DNA of 64,000 bases, from the IMG/VR virus record IMGVR_UViG_2693429637_000011. One strand, given 5' to 3'. The position numbers and the translations under genes were made by a program. Positions within the stretch are counted from its first letter, which is position 1; every line of letters begins with the position of its first letter. Shown here in pieces: positions 1 to 57,239 of the stretch. Source of the DNA: a virus. Lineage: Duplodnaviria > Heunggongvirae > Uroviricota > Caudoviricetes. The notes under the pieces were generated by a model, which saw only the letters and a program-made list of their open reading frames with translations, was not told the origin of the DNA and did no database searches.

Positions 1-1107
1 ACTAAATCAGTAAGTTGGCAGCATCACCCGACCCGTGATGGTGTTCGTGGAAAAGAAAAACTGGATGTCCCCATCAAGTTTTTATGGTGCTACGCCAGTA
101 ACACATTGATCAATCAACATGGCGACATCAATCACACCCATGAGGTGCTTCAGGATGACAGCAAGTGCGAGATGATTGTTGGCATTGACCACTTCATGAC
201 GGCCTCGGCTAAGTATTGCGATATCCTGTTGCCCGACCTGATGCCAACAGAGCAAGAAGACCTTATCTCTCATGAATCTGCAGGGAATATGGGCTATGTG
301 ATCCTCGCCCAACCCGCAACCTCAGCAAAATTTGAACGCAAACCCATCTACTGGATGCTGAGTGAAGTCGCCAAACGCTTAGGACCAGACGTTTATCAAA
401 CCTTTACTGAAGGTCGCAGTCAGCATGAATGGATCAAATATCTCCATGCGAAAACGAAGGAACGTAACCCTGAGATGCCCGACTACGAGGAGATGAAAAC
501 GACCGGGATCTTTAAGAAAAAATGCCCGGAAGAACACTACGTCGCTTTCCGCGCATTCCGTGAAGATCCACAGGCAAACCCGTTGAAAACACCTTCGGGG
601 AAAATCGAAATTTATTCTGAACGACTGGCGAAGATTGCGGATACCTGGGAATTGAAAAAAGATGAAGTTATTCATCCCCTTCCTGCGTATACCCCAGGTT
701 TTGATGGCTGGGACGATCCCCTGCGGAAAACCTATCCACTGCAGTTAACGGGCTTCCATTACAAAGCGCGTACCCACTCCAGCTACGGCAATATTGATGT
801 GTTACAGCAGGCCTGCCCACAAGAGGTGTGGATCAACCCCATTGATGCTCAGGCACGCGGTATCCGTCATGGCGATACCGTGCGGGTATTTAACAATAAT
901 GGAGAAATGCTGATTGCCGCAAAAGTGACTCCGCGTATTCTGCCTGGCGTTACCGCCATCGGGCAAGGTGCTTGGCTTAAAGCGGATATGTTTGGTGACC
1001 GGGTCGATCACGGCGGCAGTATCAATATTCTGACCTCTCACCGCCCTTCACCGCTGGCAAAGGGAAACCCGTCGCACAGCAATCTTGTCCAGATCGAAAA
1101 GGTTTAA
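1..1107 (+). CDS. ynfF: Molybdopterin oxidoreductase catalytic subunit (DmsA/YnfE/YnfF family), 3' portion; 5' end lies left of the window
   Basis: Reading frame open from base 1; C-terminus ...PSPLAKGNPSHSNLVQIEKV is typical of DMSO-reductase A subunits; a DmsB-like gene starts 10 bp downstream. Confidence 0.8.
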   Translation, partial: TKSVSWQHHPTRDGVRGKEKLDVPIKFLWCYASNTLINQHGDINHTHEVLQDDSKCEMIVGIDHFMTASAKYCDILLPDLMPTEQEDLISHESAGNMGYVILAQPATSAKFERKPIYWMLSEVAKRLGPDVYQTFTEGRSQHEWIKYLHAKTKERNPEMPDYEEMKTTGIFKKKCPEEHYVAFRAFREDPQANPLKTPSGKIEIYSERLAKIADTWELKKDEVIHPLPAYTPGFDGWDDPLRKTYPLQLTGFHYKARTHSSYGNIDVLQQACPQEVWINPIDAQARGIRHGDTVRVFNNNGEMLIAAKVTPRILPGVTAIGQGAWLKADMFGDRVDHGGSINILTSHRPSPLAKGNPSHSNLVQIEKV

Positions 1108-1117
1108 GGAGTAGCCC

Positions 1118-1231
1118 GTGACCACACAATATGGATTTTTTATCGATTCCAGCCGCTGTACTGGCTGTAAAACCTGCGAACTGGCGTGCAAAGATTTTAA
1201 AGTTGGTTACGTATCGTTTAAAATCAATTAG
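1118..1231 (+). pseudogene. ynfG: 5' fragment of 4Fe-4S subunit gene (DmsB/YnfG family), truncated after ~28 native codons by prophage insertion
   Basis: GTG start after RBS ggag; MTTQYGFFIDSSRCTGCKTCELACKDFK matches YnfG/DmsB N-terminus, then diverges at ~1202 and stops at 1229-1231. Confidence 0.75.
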
Positions 1232-1646
1232 ATAGCCCGTCATTTCTGCGCTCACACGTCCCAACATTGAAAAACATGCAAAGCTTTGTAAGCCGATGCA
1301 AAGCTTTGTGTGTCTCACTTTTGTCCCAATACCAATCCGAATCCACCCTTTGTCATCATTGAGAAATGGCAAGGAAGAAAAGGATGTTACTGCACGATTT
1401 GACAAATCCGCCAGAGCTATCGCATACTGATCGCACTGAACAAATAAGCGGTCTCCGCACCCGATAGCTTTGCGGCTTTTTTATGCCTGCAATTTGGCAT
1501 AGTTACATCCGTACAAAGGTCGGGTGGAGAGGCGTAATACAACACCCGCAAGGGGAATATGCCCAGAGCTTCTTATTTGGCTCAGTTGACACCCGACCGC
1601 CAGCTACTAACTGGCGGTTATAAACTAAACAAATAAGGAGGTCATC

Positions 1647-2285
1647 ATGACCAGTCAACTCATCCCCGTATTCAACGGCACTATCGACAACGAAACAGCC
1701 CTACTCTGCAATGCCCGCGATCTGCATGCTTTTTTAGGCGTGAAAAAAGTGTTTGCGGCATGGATTACAAATCGCATTTCAGAATACGAATTCATTGAAA
1801 ATCAAGACTATATTTTGCTTTCCAATTTGGGAAAGCAAACATCTGGTAGAGGCGGTCACAACCGCAAGGACTACCACCTCACCCTCGACACAGCCAAAGA
1901 GCTTGCGATGGTTGAACGTAACGAAAAAGGCCGCCAGATACGCCGCTACTTCATCGAGTGCGAAAAGAAACTTCGCAACATTCAGCCAGTACAAGCAGAA
2001 CCACAGCCGCAATTCACAGCCGAGGAAATCATCCTCCTTTGCTACATGCAGCTCTGGATGGAAAAAGCCCAGGACCTCAGCAAACACCTGTATCCCATTA
2101 TGAAAGAGCTGAACTCCTCATACACGAACAAGCTGTATGACATTGCGTTTGAGACCATCTACATGGTGACGAAGAACAGAGACGCGCTACTGAGGGAGGT
2201 AACACGTCTCGACATGTCAAGTTCCGTTATCCAGCGGGCCATGCCAATGCTGAAAAGCCTGCGGGCAAGACAATTCGAGTTTTAA
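1647..2285 (+). CDS. Antirepressor-like protein (AntA-type N-domain fused to shared C-terminal module)
   Basis: RBS aaggagg 8 bp upstream of ATG; C-terminal 93 aa nearly identical to ORF 48591..49262 and homologous to C-terminus of 2540..3172. Confidence 0.65.
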   Translation: MTSQLIPVFNGTIDNETALLCNARDLHAFLGVKKVFAAWITNRISEYEFIENQDYILLSNLGKQTSGRGGHNRKDYHLTLDTAKELAMVERNEKGRQIRRYFIECEKKLRNIQPVQAEPQPQFTAEEIILLCYMQLWMEKAQDLSKHLYPIMKELNSSYTNKLYDIAFETIYMVTKNRDALLREVTRLDMSSSVIQRAMPMLKSLRARQFEF

Positions 2286-2539
2286 GGCCAGATTTGACAA
2301 ATCCGCATTAACGGGGATATATTCCGCTCCATGGTGCTGAACACACCTTCGAAAGCGGAAACCGCGCCCGTCAGTCATGCGGATTTTTTATGTCCATTTT
2401 TCAGATATGGTCGGGTAGCGCGTATACCGAAAAACAGCCGCAAGGCTAAGGATGCGGGCCGAACTTTCGACGGTGTTCAAGTACCCGACCGCCCTGCTGA
2501 ACACGGGGTGATCTGAACAAATCGAAAGGACATAAAACT

Positions 2540-3172
2540 ATGAGCACTCAACTTGTATTCCACAATGTTCAATTCCAGACCGTTCAACGAGATGGTCTAC
2601 TGTGGTTGTCTGCCCCCCAAATAGCCAGCGCGTTACAATATGCAGATCAAAGCTCGGTAACACGCATCTATGCCCGTCACGCAGATGAATTCACAAACGG
2701 TATGACAGCCTCGGTCAAATTGACCGATCCTAAAGGGGACAAGCAAGAGACTCGCATCTTCTCATTACGCGGCGCTCACCTAATAGCGATGTTTGCTCGA
2801 ACTCCAATAGCAAAAGAGTTTCGTCGCTGGGTATTGGATATTCTGGACCGTGAAGCTGAAAAAAGCGCTATACCGCCACAACCTCATATTCAGCCTCAAT
2901 TCACAGCAGAAGACATCATCCTGCTCTGCTACGTTCAACTCTGGATGGAAAAAGCACAACAACTCAGTAAACAGCTATACCCCGTCATGAGAGAACTGAA
3001 CTCTGATTACTATGGAAAGCTGTTTGATCTGGCCTACGAAACTCGTCATATAACCAACCGGACTCGCGACACATTGCTCCGCGAAGCAGCAAAACTTGAT
3101 CCCGCCAACTATACGGTGCACAGGGCCAGAAGTATGCTGGCGCAACTAAGAGCAAGACAATTTGAATTCTGA
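2540..3172 (+). CDS. Bro-N domain antirepressor-like protein with the same C-terminal module
   Basis: N-terminal Bro-N-like sequence (LVFHNVQFQTVQRDGLLWLSAPQIASAL...); C-terminal ...QPQFTAEDIILLCYVQLWMEKAQ...RARQFEF homologous to the other two ant paralogs. Confidence 0.65.
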   Translation: MSTQLVFHNVQFQTVQRDGLLWLSAPQIASALQYADQSSVTRIYARHADEFTNGMTASVKLTDPKGDKQETRIFSLRGAHLIAMFARTPIAKEFRRWVLDILDREAEKSAIPPQPHIQPQFTAEDIILLCYVQLWMEKAQQLSKQLYPVMRELNSDYYGKLFDLAYETRHITNRTRDTLLREAAKLDPANYTVHRARSMLAQLRARQFEF

Positions 3173-3219
3173 AACCAAAGGAGCTTCGGCTCCTTTTTTC
3201 ATGCCTGAAGGAAAGGAAA

Positions 3220-3441
3220 ATGGCAGATATCATCGACAATGCCGCTGAAATCGAAGAATTGCAGCGCAATCTCTCCCTGCAAAAATACAAATCCGATAGT
3301 AATGCCCCATCTGCTACTCATTGTTGCGAGTGTGGCGATCCGATAGATGAGCGGCGACGCCTGGCTGTTCGTGGATGCCGAGCTTGCGCCAGTTGCCAGC
3401 AGGATATTGAACTTATCAACAAACAGAGAGGTGTGAAGTGA
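3220..3441 (+). CDS. TraR/DksA-family C4 zinc-finger protein
   Basis: 73 aa, CxxC...CxxC (CCECGDPIDERRRLAVRGCRACASC) typical of phage TraR-like proteins. Confidence 0.65.
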   Translation: MADIIDNAAEIEELQRNLSLQKYKSDSNAPSATHCCECGDPIDERRRLAVRGCRACASCQQDIELINKQRGVK

Positions 3442-3677
3442 ACATCAACACCACGATAACGATCGATACAGCCCTGAACACCGGCCTGGCGCTCCTTGGT
3501 TATTTCTACATCATGTTCTGCAGCGGACGATGGCTGTCACTGTTGTTCATGAAAAAATGGAATAAACGCCGTAAGCAGGAGCAACGCCAGAAGGCAATGG
3601 ATGCATTTTTCGAAGCCTTCGGGATTGACAGCATGGAACCAGGGGATCCAGCTCGCGCAATCAGCAGAGGGGCGTAG
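3438..3677 (+). CDS. Small hypothetical membrane protein
   Basis: GTG start overlapping upstream stop; hydrophobic segment LALLGYFYIMF. Confidence 0.35.
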   Translation: MNINTTITIDTALNTGLALLGYFYIMFCSGRWLSLLFMKKWNKRRKQEQRQKAMDAFFEAFGIDSMEPGDPARAISRGA

Positions 3678-3683
3678 TAATCC

Positions 3684-4010
3684 TTGTATATCGGAGTGAA
3701 GAGAAAAATGACGATCACAAAACAACGTGTAGAAAAAATCATATATCGCCATGAAATGGGACTGAACAGCGATGTCACTGCCGAAGAGGTTTATGACCTG
3801 GCTGTACTGGCGCTGAATTTATCAAATATCGCAAACCTGAAGCGATACGAGCTTGATATGGATGGTTGCGACTCGTGCGGTCAGGATTGTGGCGCGGATA
3901 TGACTGAAGATCCTGATGGTGATTATGTCCTGTTTGATGACGTGGTTAAGTTGTTTGAGCTTGATACATTCGAAAGCCCAGCAAAGGAGGCAACCAGTGA
4001 GCAAGATTGA
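3684..4010 (+). CDS. Hypothetical acidic protein
   Basis: ORF with coding-like composition in operon context; stop overlaps next gene start. Confidence 0.4.
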   Translation: MYIGVKRKMTITKQRVEKIIYRHEMGLNSDVTAEEVYDLAVLALNLSNIANLKRYELDMDGCDSCGQDCGADMTEDPDGDYVLFDDVVKLFELDTFESPAKEATSEQD

Positions 4011-4485
4011 TTATCAAAAGCTTCGTGAAATCGCTGAAAAAACAAAAATTGCTGGTGAAGCACCTGTAATGCCTTTCGATCAGCGAATTAATGCGCTTAA
4101 CGATTTTATGAAGCACTTTTCGCCAGATATCGCGCTGGCATTGTTGGATGAGATCAACGCATTAGAGGAAACGCGTATCAACGATGTTTGCCGTATTGCG
4201 GAACTAACAAAACAACTGGAGTTGGCAAAATCAAAACTCAACGAGCAGCGTGAGTATTACGAGGGCGTTATCTCGGATGGAAGTAAGCGCATAGCAGAGT
4301 TAGAAAGTGATTCTCAGGCACAAAAGTTAGTTGAAGCAATCATTGTTGCGATAGAAAACGAACAGGAACGTCTTTTTGATGAAGATTACCTAATGGATTC
4401 GAAAGAATGCATTGACGTAATTCGTGAAGAAGTAAAGCGATGGAATGATTCCCGCGCCGCTGGCATTCGCATCAAAGGAGAGTGA
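3997..4485 (+). CDS. Ead/Ea22-like protein
   Basis: GTG start after RBS aaggagg; [15 protein letters not shown]... N-terminus resembles lambdoid Ead/Ea22 family; coiled-coil rich. Confidence 0.55.
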
Positions 4486-4486
4486 G

Positions 4487-4810
4487 ATGACCACATCGCA
4501 TTCTGCAATTACCCAGAAAAAAGCCTTCCACATACTCGAACGATTAGAGGCGCTTGCTACGGAGGAGGAGATATCCCCGGAGAAACTGGTTGAGTTCAGC
4601 CGTGTGATATTGCGTCGCAAGAACGATATGGAGCGGCTGACATCTGGCGCTCCATCCTTATCAGTCAGGCGAACACTTTGTTGCAGCTTCTGCAACAAAT
4701 CCCAGTACGCCGTCAAAAAGTTAATTGCTGGGGACGCCGTTTTCATCTGCGACGAGTGTGTGGATGTGTGCAACAGAATTATCCGGGGAGAGAAAGAGGG
4801 ATCAGCATGA
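4487..4810 (+). CDS. ClpX-type zinc-binding-domain-like protein
   Basis: C-terminal [34 protein letters not shown] closely resembles the N-terminal C4 zinc-binding domain of ClpX; RBS aaaggagag upstream. Confidence 0.55.
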
Positions 4811-5337
4811 AATTTTCCAAATTTTCTGAGTTGGTGAATCGTATTTTGTCCAACAACCACAGCCATCGTCGCGATATGGATGTAACGATCGTTGTTCATT
4901 CGCCTGGTCGCATCGGTTCAACACCATCAGTTGAGGTTCAGTCAATTCAGGCGGGTTTTGATTGGGATGCCGGGAAAGTGATGATTTTTCCAGCACAGCC
5001 ACTGACCACGCTAACACCGGAGCAGGTTGCTGATATCACTGATAGTGTGCGCAAAGGTCAGTCTTGGCACGCGTATCAGGAATACAAGAAGCATAAAGAG
5101 CAGTTGGAAAAATTGTCGATGGAGTTGGAAGCCGCTAAACAGCGGGAAAAAGATCTGTTTATGGAAAATGTTCGACTTAAGTCAGGTATAGCCGGTCTGA
5201 TACACCTCGGTATTCGATATGCGGATGTTGAGGTCATGAAAATTGCTGGAGATGCCCAGCTTTCTACTCCATGCACTGACAGCATCATAAACAGCATTGC
5301 AGCAGGCATTTTCACCAAAGAGGGGGCAGCACGATGA
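4807..5337 (+). CDS. Hypothetical protein
   Basis: ATG overlaps upstream stop (ATGA); 176 aa. Confidence 0.45.
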
Positions 5338-5519
5338 GAACACTAGAGGTTCGCGCTGAAGACGTAATCCCTGGTGATGTGCTCATAACATCTAAAGGTC
5401 AACAATGTGCGGTTAAATCTTTTTGGATGGAAAATGACAAAGTGACTCTGTTCGGTACGGATGGTTCCGAAACTGATTATGACTACGACGAATTGCTTGT
5501 TATTGAGAGAGCTGCCTAA
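5334..5519 (+). CDS. Small hypothetical protein
   Basis: ATG overlaps upstream stop; 61 aa. Confidence 0.35.
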   Translation: MRTLEVRAEDVIPGDVLITSKGQQCAVKSFWMENDKVTLFGTDGSETDYDYDELLVIERAA

Positions 5520-6283
5520 TGACCACCTTTACCAAAGAACAGTTAATCTCCCATGCACGCGAAAGCGTTAGTTATCTGGAAAACTTGAAAGGACGTGTTA
5601 GCAAAGAAGGTGCGGACTGCAAAGTTGTTATTGAGATGGTTGCACGAGATCTAAAACTGGCACGGATTGCGCTGGCATCGCTGGAAGCAGATCCAGTTAA
5701 ACGAGTTAACTCAGATCAGATGCGCCGAGTCTGCTTAGAAGCTAATCGCCATTTAGATAAATATGACGCGATGGCGAAAGAGGTAAATAAGTTGCTTGGA
5801 CGCATCGCCCCGCCAGCGCCGGTAGTGCCGGAAGAAGCAACTCCGGAAAACGTAGAAATGCTCTCTGGCTATGTTTCCACGTACAAATTAACTGATAGGG
5901 AGCGCGATATTGCTGCCGAAATATGGAACGCCTGCCGCGCCGCCATGCTTCAGTCCGGAAACTTTCGGGAAAATAAAGATTCGTCAACCAATAATTTTCG
6001 GAAAATCCCGGAAGCGTCAACCAGCTCTCCGGTAACTCCGGATGGTTGGATAAGCTGTAGTGATCGAATGCCAGAAATGGGAGAGCGACAATACTATGTG
6101 TTAGCAGCTGACTTTAAAAACAACTACCCACCAAGCATCCCCAACACTCAGGTCGGCGTATATGGCGACTGGTTTAATGATGGCAATCCCACTTGGGATG
6201 ACGGTGATGGCGAAGACCTGCATCTCAAAGAAGTAACCCACTGGATGCCGCTACCAGAACCGCCGAAGGAGGTACGCCAATGA
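5519..6283 (+). CDS. DUF551-family phage protein
   Basis: C-terminal ...HWMPLPEPPKEVRQ motif shared with second copy at 51852..52436; same MTTFTKEQLISH N-terminus. Confidence 0.55.
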   Translation: MTTFTKEQLISHARESVSYLENLKGRVSKEGADCKVVIEMVARDLKLARIALASLEADPVKRVNSDQMRRVCLEANRHLDKYDAMAKEVNKLLGRIAPPAPVVPEEATPENVEMLSGYVSTYKLTDRERDIAAEIWNACRAAMLQSGNFRENKDSSTNNFRKIPEASTSSPVTPDGWISCSDRMPEMGERQYYVLAADFKNNYPPSIPNTQVGVYGDWFNDGNPTWDDGDGEDLHLKEVTHWMPLPEPPKEVRQ

Positions 6284-6370
6284 CCTAGCCTGAAGCATTT
6301 GCAATTGTAGTGGCTGCCATTTCGATCGCACTGATTGTTTTTGCGATTTTGCCGCTGGGGGTAAAATAGT

Positions 6371-6562
6371 TCACCTGCATGGAGATTTGATGCCGGGGAA
6401 TTGTGGGGGAGCATTCAAACCTCTCCCCTTCCCGGTTAAAGACTCCATTGCTTTGCGGTCAGAGAGATACATCAGCTTCATCAGCTTAATGAAACGCATA
6501 GATCCGCCATGCTTTTTCAGCAAATACGCTGCCATTTGCGCAACTTTTTCTTCATTAAACAT
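6371..6562 (-). pseudogene. Truncated Panacea/DUF4065-like (SocA/GepA-like) gene fragment
   Basis: MFNEEKVAQMAAYLLKKHGGSMRFIKLMKLMYLSDRKA resembles N-terminus of Panacea-domain proteins; ORF ends after 63 aa, well short of the ~150 aa I recall for this family. Confidence 0.35.
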
Positions 6563-6656
6563 AAATCGGCTCTCTGTCTCACATGAAATACTCTTTCTGA
6601 CTATATGTTAATAGCTCCGGTTATTACAGGTTAATGTGTGTTTATTTCTTAATCAG

Positions 6657-6680
6657 CCCCGCACTTCCGTACGGGGCCAT
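6657..6680. terminator. Hairpin at convergence point of plus-strand accessory genes and minus-strand late operon
   Basis: ccccgcacttccgtacgggg inverted repeat immediately downstream of giant gene stop. Confidence 0.35.
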
Positions 6681-6685
6681 TTCTG

Positions 6686-9600
6686 TTAATCCACTCCCAC
6701 TTTTTTGTTGTACTCGCGGTTAAACCGATCCACGGCAACCTTCATATCCCGCTCTACCGATTTCACCATCGCCGCCTGCTGCGCCAGACTGAGAGAACTG
6801 TCGGCATAAATGGCATCGCGCTGTTTGCGCAAATCCTTCAGTCTCTTCCGGGTATCCTGCATAAGCCCGTTCATCAACAATTTTCCGTTGTTCTCGTCAA
6901 TGAACGCCGTTCTTTCTGCACCGGTCAGACTCTTCAGCTCTGCGTGATACTGCGCAACCTCTGTCATCCGGTCGTACATCTTCTGCTGGTCTGCATACGG
7001 CATCACCTCACCCGAAATTTTCCCCAGGAAGGGCACCTGCTGTTCCGGTATATCAATACCATTCAGCGATTTCACCGCCGCATCCGTGGTTTTGGAAATG
7101 AAGCGCCCTGTCCCTCCGGAGATATAGTCAATCCAGAATTTCAGCGATTCCGGTGTGATATCCACCGCGCCGGGACGATACTGGCTGCCACCTGAGAACG
7201 CATTCAGCCAGAATGCAAACGCCTTGTACGCTTCTGGCGTTGAACGTCTTCCCAGCTGGCTGTCAGGTTTTGGTGTACCAAACGGCATGTTCTCCTGGTA
7301 AATCTGCGCCCCCATGAAGTTTTCGTTCATGGCAAGATTCGCAAACGGACGCAGAATTGTCGGTGCTGCATTTTTCAGCAATGCCCCCGACAACGTTTCC
7401 GACGTCTCGCTGCCGATCGGGCTGAATGCCCCCAGGATACCGCCGACAACATTACCGGCAGCACGTGAAGCAGTCAGGTCGCCCGCTGCCACACCTTCAG
7501 CTGTATGACCAAGCAGGAAGAACACGTTGTACCCGTAAGGCAGAGGAATACTCCAGTACTCACCGGCCTTGCCCCCGAACATCGATTTCATGATGACGAG
7601 GTTACGCTCTTTCACATGAGACGGTACTTTGTCGTACCAGTTAACCCCGTCATCATCCTCACCCGCCACACTGCGGTTAAGCGAGCCAAGCAGATAACCC
7701 GCTCCCACAGCTGCAAGCACGATTTTCTGCGGTACATTGAGATTCTTCCAGCGAAGGCGCTCCAGTAACGGTCCGTCGCCATTAAGATGTCCGAGCGTTC
7801 TCACCAGGTTTGCGGTCCCCTGAATGCTGGCGTTGGCAAACATGTACAGCGAGTTCATCAGCATCCCCTGCTCACCACGACGGTTAAAGTTCACCGTCAT
7901 GTTTTTGGCAAGAGACGCCGCCTGCTGGCGTGACAAACCGGCATCACGGGCGTGTTTATAGGCAGAAAGACGCAGAGCGTTTTCAACCGCGCCGTTGGCA
8001 TCCTCGACCAGGTTCAGGAACGAATGCCATGCACCGATACTCTGGCCTTTCCATCCGCCCTTCGCCAGCGACACAAGGCGATCCATTTCCTTCTGCTGGC
8101 CCTCAAGGTCACCCATGTTAAACCAGCCGGTTTTACCTCCGTCCTCAACAAACTCTTTCCACACTTTCTGCCACTGTGCGCCTTTGCCCGTGAGGGTTTT
8201 ACCCCGCAGACTTGCGTATACGGCTGACATGGCGGAACGGCTGTCTTTCACCACAGCCAGCGCGGATAAGTTATCCAGCTCTTTCAGTTTACCGTCGCTC
8301 CTTCCCTGCTCAGCCTTCAGGTTCATCACCGCAGTCTGCACGTCACGGATGAAGTTACTGACCAGAAATTCCGGGTTATACGACGTGTTCACCGTTGCCA
8401 GGAAGCGGTTAACTTTCCCCAGCGTACGGATTACGGCGTTACTGGTTTCCGGCCCCATGTTCTTCATCGCACGCATCAGGCGCGGATCATGAAGTTTAAT
8501 GTAGTAAGTTTTGCCGTCCTTTTTGGTGGTGAAGTAGCGATCCGCCATCATTGCCATCGGCACAGGGCGCTCGACAACTTCGCGAATGGTTTCACCAGTT
8601 TCCTGGTCCTTGCGCTCTGCAATCACACGCATTGTATCCGGTCTGTCATCAGTGAATACCTGCCAGTAATCCTTGTCGGGATTATCCTGTACCAGTTTCA
8701 GGAAGGCGTTACCCACTTCATTTTTGCGATTGCGGATCAGCGATTCACTCAAATCCTGTATCGCCTGAGTGGAAGGAGACTGTGCGCGGGATGCACGCCC
8801 CATGGCCTGCTTACTTTCACGCCCGCCGATGGTGAATCCCTTGCCTGTACGTGGCTGTGACACCACACCGTCAACATCCTGCCCTTTCAGGGGGACGTAG
8901 TAACGGTAGGCTTTCTGCCAGGCATCCACCACGCCGCTCTCTTCCAGTCCTGCCTCACGGATAATCTCACGGCGACGGGCCAGCATATCGTCAATAATCC
9001 CTGCCAGACGGTCATACTGTGCCTGTTTGCCGCTGTTACGCACACGCTGCATGATTTCCGCCGCTTCCGCGTTGGTCATCCCCGAACCGCCGTCCGGCAT
9101 TTTCGGGTTGATTTTCGCAATATGCACGTTACGTTCCGGCGCGTGACGGGCGTAGAGGTACTCATCCAGATCGGCCTGCGCAATTTTGTAGTCCGCCAGC
9201 AATTTGGCCAGCGGCTGAACGTAGCGCTCCTTCATTACGTTCAGGTCGTTTTCCGCCTTCCCGTGGAAGAGTTCTTCAGCCATATAGGCGTTATTGCTGT
9301 CATCTATTTTTCCGCCAGTTTTACGGATATTCTCCTGCACCGCCTTCAGCACCTGGAATTTATCCTGCATCTGGCGAACAAAACGGGATGCAATTGTCTC
9401 TTCCGGCGTCAGACTGCTGGTGCGGGAGTAATACGGCCCCTTGCGAATATCTTCAGGATAGAGTATTTTATCAACAGAGCCGCGATAAGAATGTTCCCCT
9501 TTGGGCAATTGGAGCCCTCTGTGCAGAAGGTTATCGCGGCTTAATTTTTCTCTCCGGTACAACGTTAAACCGGTCATTTCCATACTCTTCAGTTTTTTCC

Positions 9601-24575: not shown

Positions 24576-26546
24576 TTACTTCTCCCGGAGTTCTTTAATC
24601 TCATGACGAAGTGTTTTAAAGCCCTCGACTAACAATGCAATTATGCCGTTGTAGTTAAGACGCAGACGTTTTTCACCAGATATAACGTCTGCGTCTTCAG
24701 TTACCAGTTCAGGCAATGCTTTTTGTGCATCCTGAGCAATTAAACCAACCGACGTTTGCCAACCGTCGGCAGAGTACTGTATCTCGTAAAGATAACCAGT
24801 AAGTGCCTCCAGACGATCTAACGCATTATCCAGTTTTACCAGATTTCGCTTGTTGCGTTTATCCGAACGGATCTGAACATCGTTAAATGAGCCGTTTCCG
24901 GTCACCGTCAAATTGCCATTAATACCACCATTAAAAGTTTGTGCCTGAGTCCATGTATTGGCAGTAGTAAGCAGTTCTGTTCCTTGCCCGGGGGCTCCAG
25001 TGTCTCCCTTCGGTCCCTGTGGCCCCGCCGGACCTGCTGGTCCAGCCACTCCCGGATCACCTTTATCGCCTTTCGACCCCGGCGCACCTGCCGGACCTGC
25101 TGGTCCAGCCACCCCCGGATCGCCTTTGTCACCTTTTGGCCCCTGTGCGCCTGCCGGGCCTGCGGCTCCCGTATCCCCTTTCGGTCCCTGTGGGCCTGCC
25201 GGACCCGTATCGCCCTTGTCTCCCTTCGGGCCGGGAACGCCACCACCTGCAGCAACCTCTTCTGCCTTCTGTCTCGCCGCCTTGGCCTCATCCATTGCCG
25301 CCTTCACAGCCTTCGACGTGGCAGCCTTTGTTTCGTCATTACTGGCAGTATCACTACTTAGCTGCACAATTCCCTTCTGTGCCGTCGTCGCGTCCACCAC
25401 ATTTGCTGCGCTGCCCGCCGGACCAGGCTCCCCGCGGGGGCCCTCAGGCCCAGCTTCGCCTCGTTCACCTTTCGGACCTGCCGGACCTGTCGCACCGGCA
25501 TCTCCTTTCGGTCCCTGCGGCCCCGCCGGGCCTCTCTCTCCTGCAGGTCCGCGTAGCCCCTGCTCTCCCTGAGGCCCTCGTTCTCCCGGCTCACCTTTTT
25601 CACCTGCGGGACCGGCTGGTCCGGTGTCACCTTTAGGTCCCGCATCACCTTTCGGCCCGGGTGGTCCCCCCGGGTCTCCGGGGGCTCCTTTTTCACCTCT
25701 GGCCCCGGTTTCACCTCGTGGACCAGCAGGCCCCTGAATCCCCCGCTCTCCTTGCGGCCCCACCGGTCCTGTTTCACCGCGTGGTCCTTGTGCGCCTTGT
25801 GGACCTGTTTCTCCACGAGGGCCTGCATCACCTTTCGGTCCGGTATCACCTTTAGGGCCTCTGGCATTCTCTGCCATACGCCTGGCCTCTTCAGCACTAA
25901 CCGTAGCAGCCTCAGCACGTTTAAGAACGTCTCCGGCGGCCTCATGAGCCACTCTGGCGGTTTCAGCATGTTGTCTGGCATCATTCGCGTCTGCTGCCGC
26001 GGCCTTTTCAGACTCGCATGCCCGGGTCGCTGCTTCTGCAGCTTCACTGGCTTTTTGTCCGGCTTCAGCCGCCCTGCTGGTTGCCGTCTTTGCACTGTCA
26101 GATGCACTCTTCGCACTGGCTGCTGCACTGTCTTTTGACTGTGTGGCCTGAGTGTTTTTTGTCGCCGTGTCTTCATTCAGGCGACGAATAGTGGCAAGGT
26201 CATCAGCCACATTATTCTGTATCTGCCGGAAATCTGTCAGCAGTTCTCCGGGTATGCTCACCTCAACAAGACTGCGGCGTAACAGCATATTGAGCGTCAC
26301 CGTACTTTCGGTCCCCTCAATACGCACACGTCCGTAGACAGCAGTCTTCCCTTTCACCGTCACCGAAACCGCATACTCCCCCGGTTCCATCGTCATTCCG
26401 TAATATCCACCTTCACGGGTCACTGCCGACGCACTGGTGCCGCTGAGCGCATCCGGTGAAACTGTCAGCGCCGTCAGGGTAATATTTGCTCCTGATATCG
26501 CCTCACCATCAGGAGATTTCAGCGTCCCCGAAACAACAACACTCAC
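24576..26546 (-). CDS. Tail fibre with collagen-like Gly-X-Y repeats and C-terminal intramolecular-chaperone (endosialidase-type autoproteolytic) domain
   Basis: Two long GPxGxxGPxG repeat tracts; C-terminus ...[28 protein letters not shown]...[26 protein letters not shown]. Confidence 0.75.
25000..25875. repeat. Collagen-like triplet repeats within tail fibre gene
   Basis: Many consecutive Gly-X-Y codon triplets (ggN ccN ...), high GC. Confidence 0.7.
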
Positions 26547-37802: not shown

Positions 37803-38336
37803 TTATCTGTCGATACTCCAGCACGCCAGCGCGCTCTCCTGGTCACGCCGCGATACCTGCCCGTAACAGTTATTTGAGCGGTTCCGACAGTCCCTGCCGC
37901 CGTCATATATCCATCGGCGGATTTCAGCACATGCACCTTTCCGGTCTCCTGCGTTCAGTTTCCGGTAAAACGTTGAGGTGAAGCATTTCGAAGGCCCGAT
38001 GTTGTACGGACAGAATGACGCGATGCCCGCTTTCTGCGGTTCGGTCAGTGGCACTCTGATGTTTTTCTCCACCCATGCCAGCGCCTTATCACGCTCAATG
38101 GCGTTAACCCGGTCGCATTTTTCCTTCGACAACTTCATGCCCGGAACGACAGGTTTGCCATCCACCAGGATGGCACCGCGGCAGATAGTCCAGATACCCG
38201 CACCATCACGGTATGCCGTGGTGTGGTTACCTTCTTTTTCGTCAAGAAACTGGTCGAGGATTTCAGGCGCAGAAGCGCCCGCAGCAATCAGCGCCAGAAC
38301 GACCGCTGATAAACCATAGCGGAATTTCCTGCTCAT
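37803..38336 (-). CDS. R: SAR endolysin (GH24 T4-lysozyme-like)
   Basis: N-terminal signal-anchor-release-like segment; catalytic Glu-Asp-Thr spacing (EGNHTTAYRDGAGIWT) as in T4 lysozyme. Confidence 0.8.
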   Translation of the reverse strand: MSRKFRYGLSAVVLALIAAGASAPEILDQFLDEKEGNHTTAYRDGAGIWTICRGAILVDGKPVVPGMKLSKEKCDRVNAIERDKALAWVEKNIRVPLTEPQKAGIASFCPYNIGPSKCFTSTFYRKLNAGDRKGACAEIRRWIYDGGRDCRNRSNNCYGQVSRRDQESALACWSIDR

Positions 38337-38340
38337 CAGC

Positions 38341-38556
38341 TTACTCTCCCCGCGCCGCCTTACGCCGGTCCTCTTTGATTTTGAAATACAGGTTAGTCAG
38401 GTACGTCAGCAGCCCAAACAGCAGACTCCCCAGCACGCCTATTGCCGCCCACTGAGACGGGGAAACCCTGTCCAGCAACTGCAGGAACCAGTAGCCCGTT
38501 CCCACCGCTGACGTGGTGTATGACACACCTGTTGTGATTTTTTCCATCTGGTACAT
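38341..38556 (-). CDS. S: Pinholin (phage 21 S-like)
   Basis: [11 protein letters not shown]...[24 protein letters not shown]...[15 protein letters not shown] closely matches S21; dual-start M..M motif. Confidence 0.8.
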
Positions 38557-38632
38557 ACCCCGTCTCCCGCAATCCGGAAGCTCACAACAATATAAAGACC
38601 ACCGGCACACACCGATGGTCCCTTGCGCATGC

Positions 38633-38878
38633 TTACATCATCATGTCGCTGTCAGGTGTAGGTTCACCGCCATCTGAAGCACTCCCGTCACCCGCGATAC
38701 CTTCCGGCTCAGGAACCGCTGGTACGCCCAGCAGCTCATCCAGAATGGCATCCACTTCTGCATCAAGACGCGACTCAAGGTTCTGGCGAAGTTTCTGTTT
38801 CAGTGCGCTCCGGACTTCTTCAGAGCGCAGGACTTCCTTCACTGCCTCTGCAGTGACCAGGGATGTGATTTCTGACAT
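38633..38878 (-). CDS. Hypothetical acidic protein upstream of holin
   Basis: 81-aa ORF from ATG 38878. Confidence 0.3.
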
Positions 38879-38903
38879 GGGATTTTCTCGCTGAAAGGGG
38901 TTG

Positions 38904-39086
38904 TTAAGGAGTAACGGGCTCTTCGGGTTTGCTTCCGGCTGACTGACTGGCGCTGATTTTCTCAGCGGCCCTTTTATCAATCTGCCTGCACCAGAAATCG
39001 CGCACAGCCCTGTACCCACCCGAAAGAAGATACAGCACACAGACCGCCGTACAGAAGTACAGCATCACCTGATGAATAAATGTCAT
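38904..39086 (-). CDS. Small hypothetical membrane protein
   Basis: 60 aa, hydrophobic N-terminus. Confidence 0.3.
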   Translation of the reverse strand: MTFIHQVMLYFCTAVCVLYLLSGGYRAVRDFWCRQIDKRAAEKISASQSAGSKPEEPVTP

Positions 39087-39224
39087 AATTTCTTACCGTT
39101 ATGGTTGACAATGAGAATTGTTTTCATTTAAAAACCAATGTACGAAAGCATCTTTTCTTTACATTCTCCATTGGGATTACCTCCGCCAGCTTCCATTCCT
39201 GCCGCTGGCGGCTTTTTTTAGCAA

Positions 39225-41135
39225 TTATGCGGCTGCTCCAGCTTTGTTTGCTTTAACTTCCACCGTATCAATAAGTACAGGGTAGGTTTCTGCACTACCT
39301 GTAATATCCGTAATGACAAACCTGTTGAGTCCATTAGCAGTATTGGCCCATTTCACCAGGTCAAACGCCTGTCCATCCACACCATCGAGCACCGGAGTAA
39401 CATTAATGCTGTTACTGCCCTTAAATTTAAATGCAAGCGTATGCCAGTCATGGTCGAATGCGCCAAACGTGCCAAGTTCTTTTTGTTGATTAACTGTATG
39501 ATGGTATGCAACATTAATACTGGCTTTATCTGTCTGGACAAAGAAAGAACTCAGATGGCCTTCACCACCCTCACCCGGCCATTCCGCTATTCGCCAGTAC
39601 AAACCAAAGGCATACTTGTTTCTGGTTGTCTCAAGATTGACGTTTTCGGGGATTTTAAACCGGACAGCAATTTCTCCGCCTTTTTCCAGTAAAAGTTTTG
39701 CCTTGTCTGCAGCAATATCACAGTACATTGACCAGGATTTCGCGCTGTTATTTTTCTCAATTCGCAGAGCTTTATTGCCGCTGTCATCAACCAGTGTGCG
39801 CCTGCCATACACACCGTCCCAGCCATAGGGTTTCAGCTGATTGTCTGTAGCTTTTTTGGCATCGTAAAAAATTACAGACTCTGAGGTGGTAACCGGTCTG
39901 TCTGGAACAACCACCCCGGCAGTACCATTAACAAACGCAGAAGACTTACCCGCGCAGCTCAGAATCGCAGTTGCCAGACGGTCGGAAATAATCCCACGGC
40001 GAGCCCATGAACTGAAATGGCTCGCCCTGTCCTGTGACGTCCAGGTGGCTGAGCTGTCACGCCATTTCGAACCGTAATAACCGATACCCGGAATGTCCGG
40101 GTCTTCTTCCGGTTTGTTCGTCGGCACATTCACCCCGTTCTCATCGGTCATGAACGGTACGAAATGGATATTCTTTTCCGTTTTATTTTTATAGCTGCCG
40201 TACACCGTCTGGTACGTGGATTCGTTCTTCTGCTTCCAGAAATACGTCGTGTCCCCGCATATCCAGGGAACACCGCCAGCAGAGCCACCGACGCACTGGC
40301 CTGCCATATCCGCCAGGTCTGCACGGAATTTATCAACCAGCGCACCAAACTGTGCGGCATGATTTGCCGGCGTACCGCCAAAATCAAATTCCCCCTGCAT
40401 CCACACCACGGCAAACAGCACATTTTTCGGGTTCTTCTCCAGTGCCGCTTTTGTTCGACCGATAAGGTCCTTATACAGCGGCTTGTCCACACCCCAGCGG
40501 GTTGAATTCTCCGAGGCGCCACTCGCGTCACTGTATGTGCCATCAGCTCCGGTGGTGAACGCTGAACCACCACGACAGCACGGAACCAGCAGAATGCCCG
40601 CATTCGCCGGTATAAACGGCAGCAGTTTTTTGGCGATATGCAGCCCCTGCCCCACGGTTCCGTACTGCCCCTTTGACAGGTCCGCTTTCGGATGGTTAAG
40701 ACGGCTCATGTCCTGCACATCATGCAGACAATGGTCCGCCGGAATGATGTCGTTATATTTGCATGCTGCACCGCCCGGTGTCACCGTACTGCGACGCGCT
40801 AACTGTTTAATACGTGGATCAGGGCTGTCGAATGTATCCGGTAATGGCAGTCCCTCACCGTATGACATACCATTGGACTGACCAGCAAGCGCGATCACAT
40901 AGTAATATTCTGGCGCAACAGAAGGCGCTGAGGTCGTCGGACGGTTGCCTGGCTCCTCTGGTGATGAGATGCTCCCCTCACTCACAACTGGCTGGATGAA
41001 CTCCGCACCATAACCAGCTGTCGAAATCAGCGCACTACCATAAGGCTGCCACCCTTCCTTCAGTTTTTGAGTTATTCGTTTCGCAAGGTCTGACGGCGAC
41101 GCCGCCCTGACAACATCATAGTGTTTAAATGCCAT
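39225..41135 (-). CDS. nanS-p: Sialate O-acetylesterase, prophage NanS-p-like (copy 1)
   Basis: 636 aa; GQSN catalytic motif of the SASA/SGNH esterase family; conserved N-terminal MAFKHYDVVRAASPSDLAK...KEGWQP domain. Confidence 0.7.
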   Translation of the reverse strand: MAFKHYDVVRAASPSDLAKRITQKLKEGWQPYGSALISTAGYGAEFIQPVVSEGSISSPEEPGNRPTTSAPSVAPEYYYVIALAGQSNGMSYGEGLPLPDTFDSPDPRIKQLARRSTVTPGGAACKYNDIIPADHCLHDVQDMSRLNHPKADLSKGQYGTVGQGLHIAKKLLPFIPANAGILLVPCCRGGSAFTTGADGTYSDASGASENSTRWGVDKPLYKDLIGRTKAALEKNPKNVLFAVVWMQGEFDFGGTPANHAAQFGALVDKFRADLADMAGQCVGGSAGGVPWICGDTTYFWKQKNESTYQTVYGSYKNKTEKNIHFVPFMTDENGVNVPTNKPEEDPDIPGIGYYGSKWRDSSATWTSQDRASHFSSWARRGIISDRLATAILSCAGKSSAFVNGTAGVVVPDRPVTTSESVIFYDAKKATDNQLKPYGWDGVYGRRTLVDDSGNKALRIEKNNSAKSWSMYCDIAADKAKLLLEKGGEIAVRFKIPENVNLETTRNKYAFGLYWRIAEWPGEGGEGHLSSFFVQTDKASINVAYHHTVNQQKELGTFGAFDHDWHTLAFKFKGSNSINVTPVLDGVDGQAFDLVKWANTANGLNRFVITDITGSAETYPVLIDTVEVKANKAGAAA

Positions 41136-41557
41136 GAATCCTCCCGGCCGGGATAATATTGTGAGTAAAATAAGGAGCGGGCTGAAGTCCGGAAGTTACA
41201 GGACAATGGCAGAAGGGAGACTACAGCCCGCAATTCGAAAAAGGTCGCGCAGTTGCGCAGAGTGATTACTATGGGGTATTATTCGCCAGCTGAAATATTA
41301 CTTCACGTTTCATTGTTCATTCCTTGCCGCCCGCGTCTCCCAGCGCGGGCTTTTTTGTCCATAAGAAAGCCCCTCCGGAGAGGGGCTGGAGAGTGGCGCT
41401 ATGTGCCATTGCATGGTGCCGGGTGCCTCCCGGTGAGTTCAGCCCGGTGCCACTAAACCCGCGTCATTCTCGTTTTGATAATCAGAGATTATACCGTCAC
41501 CAGTCGCCCCTCCGCTCAGGGGGATTCACCATGCAGTTTTTTCTAACAAATTCTCAT
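41050..41557. repeat. Repeat A copy 1 (nanS-p 5' end plus ~400-bp upstream element)
   Basis: Near-identical to 45250..45742 and, in part, 46000..46300; contains hairpin cccgcg-N8-cgcggg plus T-run and a perfect TATAAT on the minus strand. Confidence 0.6.
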
Positions 41558-42596: not shown

Positions 42597-42720
42597 ATCG
42601 TGATCGATTGTGATGCCAAACTGTGATCGGAGATGGATGCCAAATCATGATCGATTCGAATGCCAAACTGCGATCGATTCAGATGCCATTTTGCAATCAG
42701 CGCCAGAACAGCAGCTGACA
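41526..42720 (-). mobile_element. IS21-family-like element remnant (IstA-like transposase, no IstB)
   Basis: DDE transposase-like ORF; left end carries multiple atgccaaa(c/t)(c/t)gtgatcg terminal repeats (42540-42700); 3' end abuts repeat A. Confidence 0.5.
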
Positions 42721-42800
42721 GGCCGTATTTGATTTTTGCGCTCATGGATATTTATCAGGATGCTACCAATGAAAGATACTGGAAAGCCAACTGCAAAAAG

Positions 42801-43115: not shown

Positions 43116-43119
43116 TGAA

Positions 43120-45742: not shown

Positions 45743-45837
45743 GAAATTTTTTTAACAAATGCCCAGTCTGACAGGCAACTGTCAACTTACTGAATTGTGA
45801 GCAACATAGCATTTAACGGGGAACCTGTTTTCTGCAG

Positions 45838-45866: not shown

Positions 45867-45873
45867 GGAAGGA

Positions 45874-48536: not shown

Positions 48537-48590
48537 TATTCCCTCTCACTGGATTTTCCCAACAAAAAAGGAGCCGAAGCTCCTTTAGTT

Positions 48591-49262
48591 TCAGAATTCA
48601 AATTGTCTTGCCCGCAGGCTTTTCAGCATTGGCATGGCCCGCTGGATAACGGAACTTGACATGTCGAGACGTGTTACCTCCCTCAGTAGCGCGTCTCTGT
48701 TCTTCGTCACCATGTAGATGGTCTCAAACGCAATGTCATACAGCTTGTTCGTGTATGAGGAGTTCAGCTCTTTCATAATGGGATACAGGTGTTTGCTGAG
48801 GTCCTGGGCTTTTTCCATCCAGAGCTGCATGTAGCAAAGGAGGATGATTTCTTCGGCTGTGAATTGTGGCTGAATCTGCGGCTGCTGTTCGGTTGGTGCT
48901 GTTTTTCCCTGGCTGAAATAGCAGTCTTCCAGTTTTTCGAATACCTCCCACGCCTGATCAGTTTCGAGCATTTTTGCGTGACGGGCTGCGCCGCGTTCTG
49001 TCCATAGGATGAGGGAGCGAACGTTACGGGCAATTTTCACAGAGTAGTTAAAAGCTACTCTGTGCTTGAACTCACGTAAAGTTTCACCTTCAAGTTTGAA
49101 GAAGTGTTTTTCCTCAATGAAACGACCTTTGTTTTCGTGGTGATTCTGGCGAATACGAATAGCTTCTGTGCCGTAAAGGTGCGCCAAAAGTTCGGTAGTG
49201 ATAACGGGGATCTGCTTGTAAGTAATCGTGGAGAGTGTTTCAACAGAAACTTGAGTTGTCAT
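48591..49262 (-). CDS. Antirepressor-like protein (third paralog, distinct N-domain plus shared C-terminal module)
   Basis: C-terminal 93 aa identical in protein to 1647..2285; terminator and structured leader upstream. Confidence 0.65.
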   Translation of the reverse strand: MTTQVSVETLSTITYKQIPVITTELLAHLYGTEAIRIRQNHHENKGRFIEEKHFFKLEGETLREFKHRVAFNYSVKIARNVRSLILWTERGAARHAKMLETDQAWEVFEKLEDCYFSQGKTAPTEQQPQIQPQFTAEEIILLCYMQLWMEKAQDLSKHLYPIMKELNSSYTNKLYDIAFETIYMVTKNRDALLREVTRLDMSSSVIQRAMPMLKSLRARQFEF

Positions 49263-49606
49263 AATGACGCCCTCGAGTGGTTTCTAAACTATCACCACCG
49301 TCAGGTTCCTAATCATCGGGTGGCGAGACGTACAGGGTTAGGAACTACCGGGAAACCAACCGGCGAGCTTTTCAGCTCCCCTATACGCCCCACCATAATT
49401 CAGATGTGCGTGTGCATACGACAATAAAAAACACGCTCGCGGCGTGTCTCTGTCGCGGTTTCTATCCGGGGTTCCTAATCCCGACGCCAGATTTTGCTGG
49501 CGTGCGATGAATATAATCCCGGATACGCGACGTTGTCAAACTGATGGCATTGCAGATCCCTACGCAATGTAACACTATGTGTTATACATTAATAACGGAA
49601 CAAAAA

Positions 49607-56531: not shown

Positions 56532-57239
56532 ATGAAAACATTCGCAGAAAGACTAAATGCCGCCATGAGTTCAGCCGGGTTGTCACAAGCACAACTTGCA
56601 GACATGGTGGGGGTATCACAACCAGCCATACAAAAGATGTCATCTGGTAAAACAACCGGATCACGTAAAATGGTCGAATTAGCCAACGCGTTAAGAGTTC
56701 GCCCTGAATGGCTAAGCTCTGGTATAGGGTCAATGAGACCACAGAGCGCAGAAGAGCCATCTAATGCTCGGGAATCATCTTTAAAAGCTATCGCCTGGGA
56801 TGATCATCAAAATGATAATGAAGAATTTGTTGCGCTCCCCCTTCTAAATATTTCACTTTCAGCTGGCGGAGGAAGTTGTGCATTGGAGGAGTCCGCAGAA
56901 TTCTCTCTAGTTTTTAGGCGCTATTACCTGAAAAAAATGGGAGTTCCAGAAAAAGCGGCAAAGTTGGTCAGGGTTGTTGGGCAAAGCATGGAGCCAACAC
57001 TCCATGATGGTGATGTGGTGGGGGTAAACACGCAAGATACGAGCATCAGGGATGGTAAAACATATGCAATTTGCCAAGCTGATTTGTTAAGGGTAAAAAC
57101 GCTCATAGCCACGCCAACATCGGTAATTATCAGATCGATAAACCGCGAAGAGTATCCTGATGAAGTAATGAACAGAGAAGAATTCTACAAAAACGTAAGA
57201 ATCATAGGGCGAGTGTTCTGGTCATCACATAGCTGGTAA
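56532..57239 (+). CDS. cI: CI-like prophage repressor (HTH plus S24 LexA-like peptidase domain)
   Basis: N-terminal HTH; C-terminal ...VGQSMEPTLHDGDVV... and conserved Lys region. Confidence 0.85.
   Translation: MKTFAERLNAAMSSAGLSQAQLADMVGVSQPAIQKMSSGKTTGSRKMVELANALRVRPEWLSSGIGSMRPQSAEEPSNARESSLKAIAWDDHQNDNEEFVALPLLNISLSAGGGSCALEESAEFSLVFRRYYLKKMGVPEKAAKLVRVVGQSMEPTLHDGDVVGVNTQDTSIRDGKTYAICQADLLRVKTLIATPTSVIIRSINREEYPDEVMNREEFYKNVRIIGRVFWSSHSW

Follow-up and report, generated by a model that had tools for sequence, protein, structure and literature searches.

Three antirepressor-type gene cassettes, each with its own C4-like RNA and a common C-terminal module, in a lambdoid prophage of Escherichia coli

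Introduction

The antirepressor gene ant of phage P22 is under the control of Mnt, Arc and sar, not of a C4-type RNA. For phage P1, Citron and Schuster (1990), as cited in PMC8198154, reported that the c4 RNA blocks ant expression, and IsrK controls the translation of the downstream antirepressor AnrP (PMC4825925). Deletion of ant from phage Phi24B lowered the induction of pR' to ~27-56% of the wild type (PMC3064807). Combinatorial shuffling of Bro-N and KilA-N domains in Ant-family regulators is attributed in PMC9043618 to Iyer, Koonin and Aravind (2002), and in AriS a variable N-domain gives phage-specific regulation and a conserved C-domain gives a common activity (PMC9043618). Here we describe three ant-type genes, antA, antB and antC, in a stretch of 64,000 nucleotides of viral DNA (IMG/VR record IMGVR_UViG_2693429637_000011, Caudoviricetes; the whole stretch is called the window). 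Their products consist of different N-terminal domains on one C-terminal module, and a C4-like RNA is encoded directly upstream of each gene.

The window is an E. coli lambdoid prophage, similar to 933W and POCJ13, inserted in ynfG, together with flanking host DNA. Sister prophages occupy ynfG in O104:H4 2009EL-2071, FORC_069, ES5 and AST198. We consider it likely that the three genes belong to autonomous antirepressor cassettes controlled by antisense RNAs, that the cassettes have been shuffled through the common module, and that an inverted repeat formed by antA and antC is a by-product of this shuffling.

Domain architecture of the Ant proteins

1647..2285, + strand: antA, AntA N-domain and P22AR_C module, allele A (open reading frame (ORF), Pfam, PHROG)
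2540..3172, + strand: antB, Bro-N domain and P22AR_C module, allele B (ORF, Pfam)
48591..49262, - strand: antC, ORF6N domain and P22AR_C module, allele A, in the nin region upstream of ninB (ORF, Pfam)

Protein alignment showed a common C-terminus of 93 aa (AntA residues 120-212), which starts with QPQFTAEEIILLCYMQLWMEKAQ and ends with RARQFEF. AntA, AntB and AntC aligned solely over these last 93 residues, and the protein sequence of the module was identical in AntA and AntC. The AntB module kept the conserved motif, and its DNA aligned with that of antA over the first 113 nt only, at ~81%. The N-domains scored 92.9 bits for AntA (PF08346, gathering score 27), 44 bits for Bro-N (PF02498, 25.6) and 71 bits for ORF6N (PF10543, 27.8), and P22_AR_C (PF10548; cut-off 22.4) was matched by AntA, AntB and AntC at 30.4, 30.8 and 31.5 bits, respectively. 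All three proteins matched 'anti-repressor Ant' families in PHROGs, with E-values down to 1e-99. ORFs, alignment, Pfam and PHROGs agree on the three antirepressor-like ORFs with a common C-terminus of ~93 aa that a first-pass annotation of this DNA had proposed. That annotation had also called the three N-domains unrelated. They do fall into three different Pfam families, and BLASTP among them detected no significant similarity, but PHROG profiles link them: phrog_373 and phrog_63 match AntA and AntC, phrog_2127 matches AntB and AntC, and the profile positions overlap. Judged by these profiles, the N-domains are probably distant relatives in one Bro-N-like superfamily, and they are better termed different families than unrelated domains.

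A PDB sequence search with AntA found no relative among solved structures at E up to 1. A protein identical to AntC was present on 808 contigs, including the O104:H4 chromosome. An exhaustive search of representative proteins yielded only 11 clusters, with Bro-N, ORF6N and apparent deletion fusions as N-terminal partners, which indicated a narrow enterobacterial subfamily, and a word-index protein search with the 93-aa module alone returned almost entirely gene fragments. In the database proteins P0039, P0043 and P0044, the P22 tailspike head-binding domain, P22 gp7 or the N-terminus of replication protein O is joined to a partial P22AR_C; these chimeras are probably deletion fusions in decaying prophages.

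Cassette organization and C4-like RNAs

All three cassettes have the order strong sigma70-like promoter, short leader ending in a T-run, C4-like RNA and ant gene. Cassettes A and B stand in tandem at the att-proximal end, and cassette C stands alone in the nin region. Their elements are as follows.

Cassette A
1399..1428, + strand: sigma70-like promoter, TTGACA-18-CATACT, 10/12 (promoter scan)
1441..1448, + strand: upstream target CAAATAAG in the leader (loop/target search)
1518..1606, + strand: C4-like RNA, Rfam sRNA-Xcc1, 69.1 bits (gathering 53), loop CUUAUUUG at RNA positions 55-62
1630..1637, + strand: downstream target CAAATAAG, overlapping the antA Shine-Dalgarno sequence AAGGAGG (loop/target search)

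Cassette B
2294..2323, + strand: sigma70-like promoter, TTGACA-18-TATATT, 11/12 (promoter scan)
2349..2355, + strand: upstream target TCGAAAG in the leader (loop/target search)
2409..2498, + strand: C4-like RNA, Rfam sRNA-Xcc1, 67.5 bits (gathering 53), loop CUUUCGA
2522..2528, + strand: downstream target TCGAAAG, at or abutting the antB ribosome-binding site AAGGA (loop/target search)
3176..3199, + strand: stem-loop and T-run AAAGGAGCTTCGGCTCCTTTTTT, common to the stretch downstream of antC (alignment)

Cassette C
49510..49539, - strand: sigma70-like promoter, TTGACA-18-TATATT, 11/12 (promoter scan)
49426..49503, - strand: IsrK-type leader, Rfam isrK, 69.2 bits (gathering 50)
49471-49478, - strand: upstream target TTAGGAAC in the leader (loop/target search)
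49316..49400, - strand: C4 antisense RNA, Rfam C4, 66 bits (gathering 45), loops GUUCCUAA and UGGUUUC
49278..49312, - strand: downstream targets TTAGGAAC (49305-49312) and GAAACCA (49278-49284), upstream of the antC ribosome-binding site
48567..48586, - strand: intrinsic terminator after antC (terminator scan)

The motif TTGACAAATCCGC of the cassette A promoter recurs at cassette B, and the T-run of the cassette A leader lies at ~1477-1483. Only the leader of cassette C matched isrK; the leaders of cassettes A and B are analogous and end in a T-run, but did not match this model. In antB and antC, a common stop-codon region is followed by a stem-loop and T-run, whereas antA leads straight into the antB cassette. 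The stem-loop at 3176..3199, which marks the right boundary of the mobile antB cassette, was not called by the terminator scan, and its copy downstream of antC was called terminator-like.

The C4-like RNAs all lie on the coding strand, directly upstream of each ant, and scored above the Rfam gathering scores. Rfam assigns sRNA-Xcc1 to no clan, and the RNAs of cassettes A and B are therefore C4-like by structure and context. In six related loci, every ant likewise had such an RNA match directly 5' of it on its own strand, above the gathering score. The Rfam model c4-a1b1 ('a1, b1 targets of C4') matched in FORC_069 and AST198 as well, and in sister loci it falls at the position of the isrK leader.

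Complementarity between loop and flanks was assessed by exact k-mers with shuffled and non-cognate controls. In each cassette, a loop at RNA positions ~55-63 was exactly complementary to one site in the leader and one site just downstream of the RNA. The pairings were CTTATTTG with CAAATAAG at 1441 and 1630 in cassette A, CTTTCGA with TCGAAAG at 2349 and 2522 in cassette B, and GTTCCTAA with TTAGGAAC at 49478 and 49312 in cassette C. In cassettes A and B, the downstream target is located at the ant ribosome-binding site; in cassette C the first downstream target is ~45 nt upstream of the start codon, and the second loop, UGGUUUC, pairs nearer the ribosome-binding site. Across the window and the six related loci, all 18 RNAs (18/18), which represented 9 distinct specificities, contained in a loop a k-mer that had one complement on the upstream side and another on the downstream side. 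Such a k-mer of at least 7 nt occurred in 0.8% of shuffles, compared with 7 of the 9 distinct cassettes observed, and 61 of 72 non-cognate pairings of RNA and flank had none. The loop/target sequence differs among cassettes A, B and C, which suggests that the three cassettes are independently regulated.

This arrangement resembles immI of P1/P7 in several respects. A C4-family RNA lies just upstream of the antirepressor gene on the same strand, its loops complement upstream a1/b1 sites and downstream a2/b2 sites at the start of translation, and the specificity varies, as it does between P1 and P7. The C4-type RNA directly upstream of ant, the complementarity of the loop to both targets and the variation in specificity are thus what control of the C4/immI type would be expected to leave in the DNA. 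The window differs from P1/P7 in that its Ant proteins are of other families (AntA, Bro-N or ORF6N with P22AR_C) and that one lambdoid prophage has three cassettes. A C1-type operator was not identified either, although no search aimed at operators was made. Cassette C also resembles isrK-orf45-anrP of Gifsy-1, with a leader that fits the isrK model, an antirepressor-like gene downstream, and the gene of the Q antiterminator nearby.

Cassette anatomy, the RNA family matches, and the complementarity with its variation were read directly from the DNA; the RNA-mediated repression is proposed by analogy with P1/P7 immI. In each cassette, transcription from the constitutive-looking sigma70 promoter would run through the leader and the C4-like RNA into ant. 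The loop of the processed RNA would pair at or just upstream of the ant ribosome-binding site and keep Ant off in the lysogen. Synthesis of Ant would occur where the RNA is missing or outpaced, such as upon infection of a naive cell or after derepression, and Ant would then bind and inactivate CI-type repressors. The variable Bro-N-like N-domain probably sets the target specificity, and the helical P22AR_C module probably carries the common function.

Predicted function of the Ant proteins

One repressor in the window is presumed to be the target of at least one Ant.

56532..57239, + strand: CI-type repressor, HTH_3 and Peptidase_S24 (domain matches)

We infer antirepressor activity from homology and genomic context, and the binding of a repressor by any Ant is putative. 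This is one of several points that weigh against the proposed function. The P22_AR_C match of this subfamily is only ~30 bits. The Peptidase_S24 domain of CI would permit induction without the need of an antirepressor, which suggests that the Ant proteins are not what primarily triggers induction and instead have an auxiliary role, or act against other prophages or superinfection. Proteins with Bro-N or AntA N-domains on other C-domains can have other activities, such as the inhibition of the SOS response by the KilAC domain of AriS (PMC9043618). No icd- or orf45-like upstream ORF was evident in cassettes A and B, where, unlike in P1/P7 immI, the target is directly at the ant ribosome-binding site, and the coupling may therefore differ from that in P1 and Gifsy-1; in Gifsy-1 the short IsrK activates translation via orf45, and no orf45 equivalent was established here in the 50-nt leader that was inspected. 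Finally, the AlphaFold2 model of AntC, built from a shallow alignment of 13 sequences, had a mean pLDDT of 44.6 and a pTM of 0.31 and gave no support for a domain function; its C-module formed three long helices with a pLDDT of only 55-67.

The same match and the same repressor domain can be read in favor of another explanation, in which 'antirepressor' is an inherited annotation only and AntA, AntB and AntC are DNA-binding regulators or host-directed effectors, such as AriS-like SOS modulators or KilA-like growth inhibitors. The weakness of the P22_AR_C match and the dispensability of Ant for SOS induction in the presence of a Peptidase_S24 CI would fit it, as would the separate regulatory activities of the N- and C-domains of AriS (PMC9043618) and the proposal that Bro-N, AntA and ORF6N are DNA-binding domains, which PMC9043618 cites from Iyer 2002. 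We nevertheless regard this explanation as unlikely, because the C4/IsrK-type RNA context is that of the true antirepressors P1 Ant and Gifsy-1 AnrP, and because an Ant of the nin region with a P22-type C-domain promotes induction in Phi24B.

An antirepressor function would also be consistent with the relatives of the module. P22 Ant and Phi24B Ant have a domain of the same P22AR_C family, and in Phi24B ant is located before Q/qut, as is antC, and boosts induction of the late promoter (PMC3064807). The C-domain of Phi24B is 82% identical to that of P22 Ant, whereas the module of the window scores ~30 bits against the Pfam model and represents a diverged subfamily. A conserved C-domain with alternating N-domains (AntA/AntB, Bro-N, pRha) is likewise found in the AriS-like regulators of Listeria comK phages (PMC9043618), in which, unlike here, the C-domain is ANT/KilAC and inhibits the SOS response. 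By analogy with Gifsy antirepressors and AriS-like regulators, it is plausible that several antirepressors act against different repressors (Lemire 2011, PMC3121763; Azulay 2022, PMC9043618); the concept of action across prophages on the repressors of a polylysogen is that of the Gifsy antirepressors (Lemire, Figueroa-Bossi and Bossi 2011; PMC3121763). A search of the window for the exact LexA box CTGT-N8-ACAG gave 3 matches, none near the ant promoters, and control of the ant genes by LexA was rejected since no exact box adjoins these promoters. The Gifsy antirepressors are reportedly controlled by LexA and their repressors not self-cleaving, from which the window differs both in this respect and in its CI with Peptidase_S24.

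Exchange of cassettes through the conserved module

Comparison with other prophages showed that the cassettes vary in position and composition. The antB (BRO) cassette follows an AntA-type gene at the att locus in the window and in FORC_069; in AST198 and many other genomes it is found at the nin locus, behind an ORF6N gene. In these ORF6N-BRO tandems of the nin locus, homology to the window stops exactly at the common terminator, at window position 3199. N-domains occur with either C allele; Bro-N is joined to allele A in AST198 and to allele B in the window. The first 113 nt of the antA module form a direct repeat with 2891-3003 in antB. The att locus of O104:H4 corresponds to the window minus ~2117-3003, and its two alignments overlap precisely in this 113-nt direct repeat. 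Truncated remnants of N-domains precede full cassettes in FORC_069, ES5, AST198 and POCJ13. The breakpoints, which were observed directly, lie in the module and indicate that its conserved 5' third is a recurrent recombination joint. The comparisons show that ant cassettes come and go, and pass from one of the two loci to the other, by way of the conserved coding sequence of the module.

The phage itself encodes the recombination functions Bet, a RecE-like exonuclease, Gam, NinB and RusA. From what is generally known of Red-type recombination, Bet, RecE and NinB plausibly drive the exchange of cassettes.

The nin region of FORC_069 (L003 2700-6020) contains additional antirepressor-type genes, one for an Ant protein in a second isrK/C4 cassette and one for a KilAC-domain antirepressor, and this prophage has six intact or remnant ant-type genes in all.

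Near-identity of the inverted module copies

Because the att and nin loci are oppositely oriented, the two copies of allele A in the window form an inverted repeat.

2004..2281, + strand: left arm, coding region of the antA C-module (repeat finder, base-by-base comparison)
48595..48872, - strand: right arm, coding region of the antC C-module (repeat finder, base-by-base comparison)

The repeat finder reported the arms as 278 nt at 99%, and in an ungapped comparison they were 98.6% identical, with 4 mismatches at 2009, 2024, 2276 and 2279 and a perfect core of 251 bp (2025-2275 versus 48851-48601), and identity collapsed immediately outside the arms. The inverted repeat is far beyond chance. 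The first-pass annotation had placed near-identical inverted copies at 2010-2285 and 48591-48866, which was right within a few bases, and the pairwise identity over the 278 nt, with 4 mismatches, does not fall below ~95 percent. It had further proposed that the repeat could mediate inversion of the 46-kb segment between the copies, and this found no support, as described in the following section. A second set of inverted repeats is formed by DUF551 paralogs and downstream sequence at 5519-6366 and 51769-52496 (I2, 139 nt, 90%; I4, 134 nt, 74%; I6). These repeats are not colinear with the ant repeat and are therefore modules that were shuffled separately, rather than a single inverted duplication.

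The near-identity is not special to the pair in the window, as its copies are no more alike than copies across genomes. Copies at the same locus of the window and FORC_069 differed by 1 nt, and the two copies within each of these genomes differed by 4 nt; the two ES5 copies differed by 15 nt. The four differences at the edges of the arms were specific to the locus and shared across genomes. Module position 73, on the other hand, covaried within the genome, with C in both window copies and A in both FORC_069 copies, a weak hint of occasional conversion. This covariation is what would be expected if ongoing gene conversion between the two loci, without crossing over, kept the arms alike in this prophage. 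We consider such conversion quite unlikely as the cause of the near-identity, since same-locus copies of different genomes are closer to each other than the copies within a genome, the edge differences follow the locus, and the ES5 copies have diverged; such a pattern is expected of a conserved allele that recombination has spread, and not of homogenization within the genome. Concerted evolution of the two arms was rejected on the mismatch matrix.

Search for inversion of the 46-kb segment

Both junctions expected from an inversion (ynfF-AntA-ninB, and AntC followed by the AntB cassette and TraR) were built in silico and searched for in 5,426 complete E. coli genomes. Neither junction was found in these genomes: no place reached a query coverage of at least 80%, and no junction was spanned among the matches listed. 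The best coverage of the ynfF-antA-ninB query was 60%, which corresponded to its native half only. The C-module was present in 198 genomes, and 75 records had two copies, all within the junction search. The orientation was native in 5 of the 5 ynfG prophages fetched (23CRST047, O104:H4, FORC_069, ES5 and AST198). Inversion isomers in complete genomes were thus rejected on the junction searches; rare isomers formed by RecA or Red within a culture may be missed in consensus assemblies. An assembly artefact was also dismissed, as the architecture recurs in independent complete genomes.

The repeat also does not resemble an inversion switch of the Hin/Gin/Cin or Fim type, for which a recombinase, both orientations and a conserved repeat would be expected. 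The RefSeq annotation of the fetched parts of the sister prophages contained no invertase or resolvase, the only recombination genes being integrase, RusA, NinB and Bet/Exo/RecE. A single orientation was seen, and the arms are a coding sequence of 278 nt, unlike short inverted crossover sites. In O104:H4, where allele B is at the att-side locus and allele A is at the nin locus, the inverted repeat is absent.

For general homologous recombination, the length of homology would suffice, and the isomers were not seen in consensus assemblies. The repeat could accordingly be imagined as a working substrate of RecA or of Bet/RecE/NinB that flips the segment between antA and antC and gives two isomers of the prophage; in the inverted isomer, antA would be followed by ninB, Q and the late operon, which would be transcribed not from pR but from the antA promoter, or from pL through attP. 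The perfect homology of 251 bp is well over the minimum generally known to be needed by RecA or Red, the phage has recombination genes of its own, and a crossover within the identical coding sequence would leave both recombinant Ant proteins unchanged. The missing junctions in the 5,426 assemblies, including the 75 two-copy records, the one orientation of all fetched sister prophages and the absence of the repeat from O104:H4 nevertheless make this explanation extremely improbable, and an inversion would part Q and the late genes from pR, probably at a cost in fitness. The inverted repeat is a by-product of one module allele present at two oppositely oriented loci and not an inversion switch.

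Prophage context and neighboring genes

The window opens with the host gene ynfF (ORF 106-1107), and the prophage fills the remainder beyond the truncated ynfG.

1120..1200, + strand: truncated host ynfG (4Fe-4S subunit), 3' of ynfF (RefSeq annotation of the near-identical 23CRST047)

The cut in ynfG at 1120-1200 is the junction of prophage and host and indicates insertion in this gene. E. coli 23CRST047 contains a near-identical copy (99.9% over window 26-7000), and the nearest isolated phages are the Shigella phages POCJ13 and 75/02 Stx and 933W-like Stx phages. Both ynfF and the truncated ynfG have the orientation of antA, so that transcripts of the host ynf operon could, in principle, extend into cassette A. 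Adjoining the att junction, at 1274-1313, are two copies of a palindrome-containing motif, ATGCAAAGCTTTGT, which form a hairpin of 17 pairs with a T-rich tail behind it. The element may be a terminator that protects the prophage from read-through of ynfEFG, or it may represent arm sites of integrase or IHF.

On the att side, the order on the + strand is att junction, antA, antB, TraR/DksA, Ead/Ea22, a ClpX zinc-finger protein and DUF551. Next comes the complete late operon, which is encoded on the - strand and has among its products a 2783-aa LPD5 protein, a collagen-like tail fibre, the portal and the terminase; 5' of it on the - strand are the lysis genes, Q, RusA, NinB and antC. To the right of antC are toxin-antitoxin genes, hok/sok, DUF551, P, O, cII and cro (-), and beyond cro are cI (+) and the pL operon (+). 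In the circular genome of an Stx1 phage, int, attP and an AntB-like gene share one strand, which indicates that excision turns the att-side ant genes into a distal extension of the pL operon.

The interval 49544-51555, between DUF551 and antC, is densely occupied by addiction modules.

49544-50287: RelE-family toxin and HTH partner
50338-50832: Fic/Doc toxin
51381-51555: hok/sok locus, sok RNA

In sister prophages, a second Hok/Gef gene is present in the late region, immediately downstream of the Ail/Lom gene. The small phage protein encoded at 4445-4810, adjoining the TraR/DksA and Ead/Ea22 genes, has a ClpX C4-type zinc finger (PF06689, E 1.7e-15). The tail fibre gene (24576-26546) contains long collagen-like (Gly-X-Y) coding repeats, which make up repeat families D1, D3 and D7, and its length differs among sister prophages from 1908 to 2034 nt. 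Downstream of Q, 38284-41562 and 42693-46305 form a direct duplication with an offset of 4.2-4.8 kb (families D2, D4-D6, D10 and D12). It gives rise to three copies of the STnc100 RNA (41357-41562, 45562-45771 and 46100-46305), which is single-copy in the sister prophages L002, L003 (FORC_069) and L005, and to two paralogous esterase-like genes encoding ~620-636 aa (39225-41135 and 43486-45339), whose O104:H4 homolog is annotated as a SASA family carbohydrate esterase.

Discussion

Domain shuffling, the RNA families and the logic of immI have already been described, and the current understanding of them is unchanged by the present analysis. What is added is the anatomy of cassettes with three orthogonal C4-like RNAs, all parts of which are of known kinds; the one surprising proposal, the 46-kb inversion, is unsupported.

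A far-reaching combination of readings can be put together, which as a whole we think very unlikely. In it, one lambdoid prophage with a Peptidase_S24 CI would have a three-channel, mutually orthogonal system of antisense RNAs and antirepressors (a), in which each Ant N-domain would target a different class of repressors of competing prophages (b) and each C4-like RNA would provide a secondary immunity of its own to superinfecting phages with the same cassette (c). The C-module would be near-identical because it is also the joint of exchange between phages and the two loci (d), and rare crossovers of the inverted copies would produce isomers with Q and the late operon transcribed from pL through attP (e).

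Antirepressors and antisense RNAs help determine the timing of prophage awakening. The family of this prophage includes Stx phages and a prophage of the O104:H4 outbreak lineage, which gives the cassettes relevance to toxin release and to cross-talk among prophages. Three independently addressed cassettes that are exchanged via a common protein-coding joint would be a clear example of the shuffling of regulatory modules, and they offer a ready test bed for the orthogonality of C4-like RNAs.

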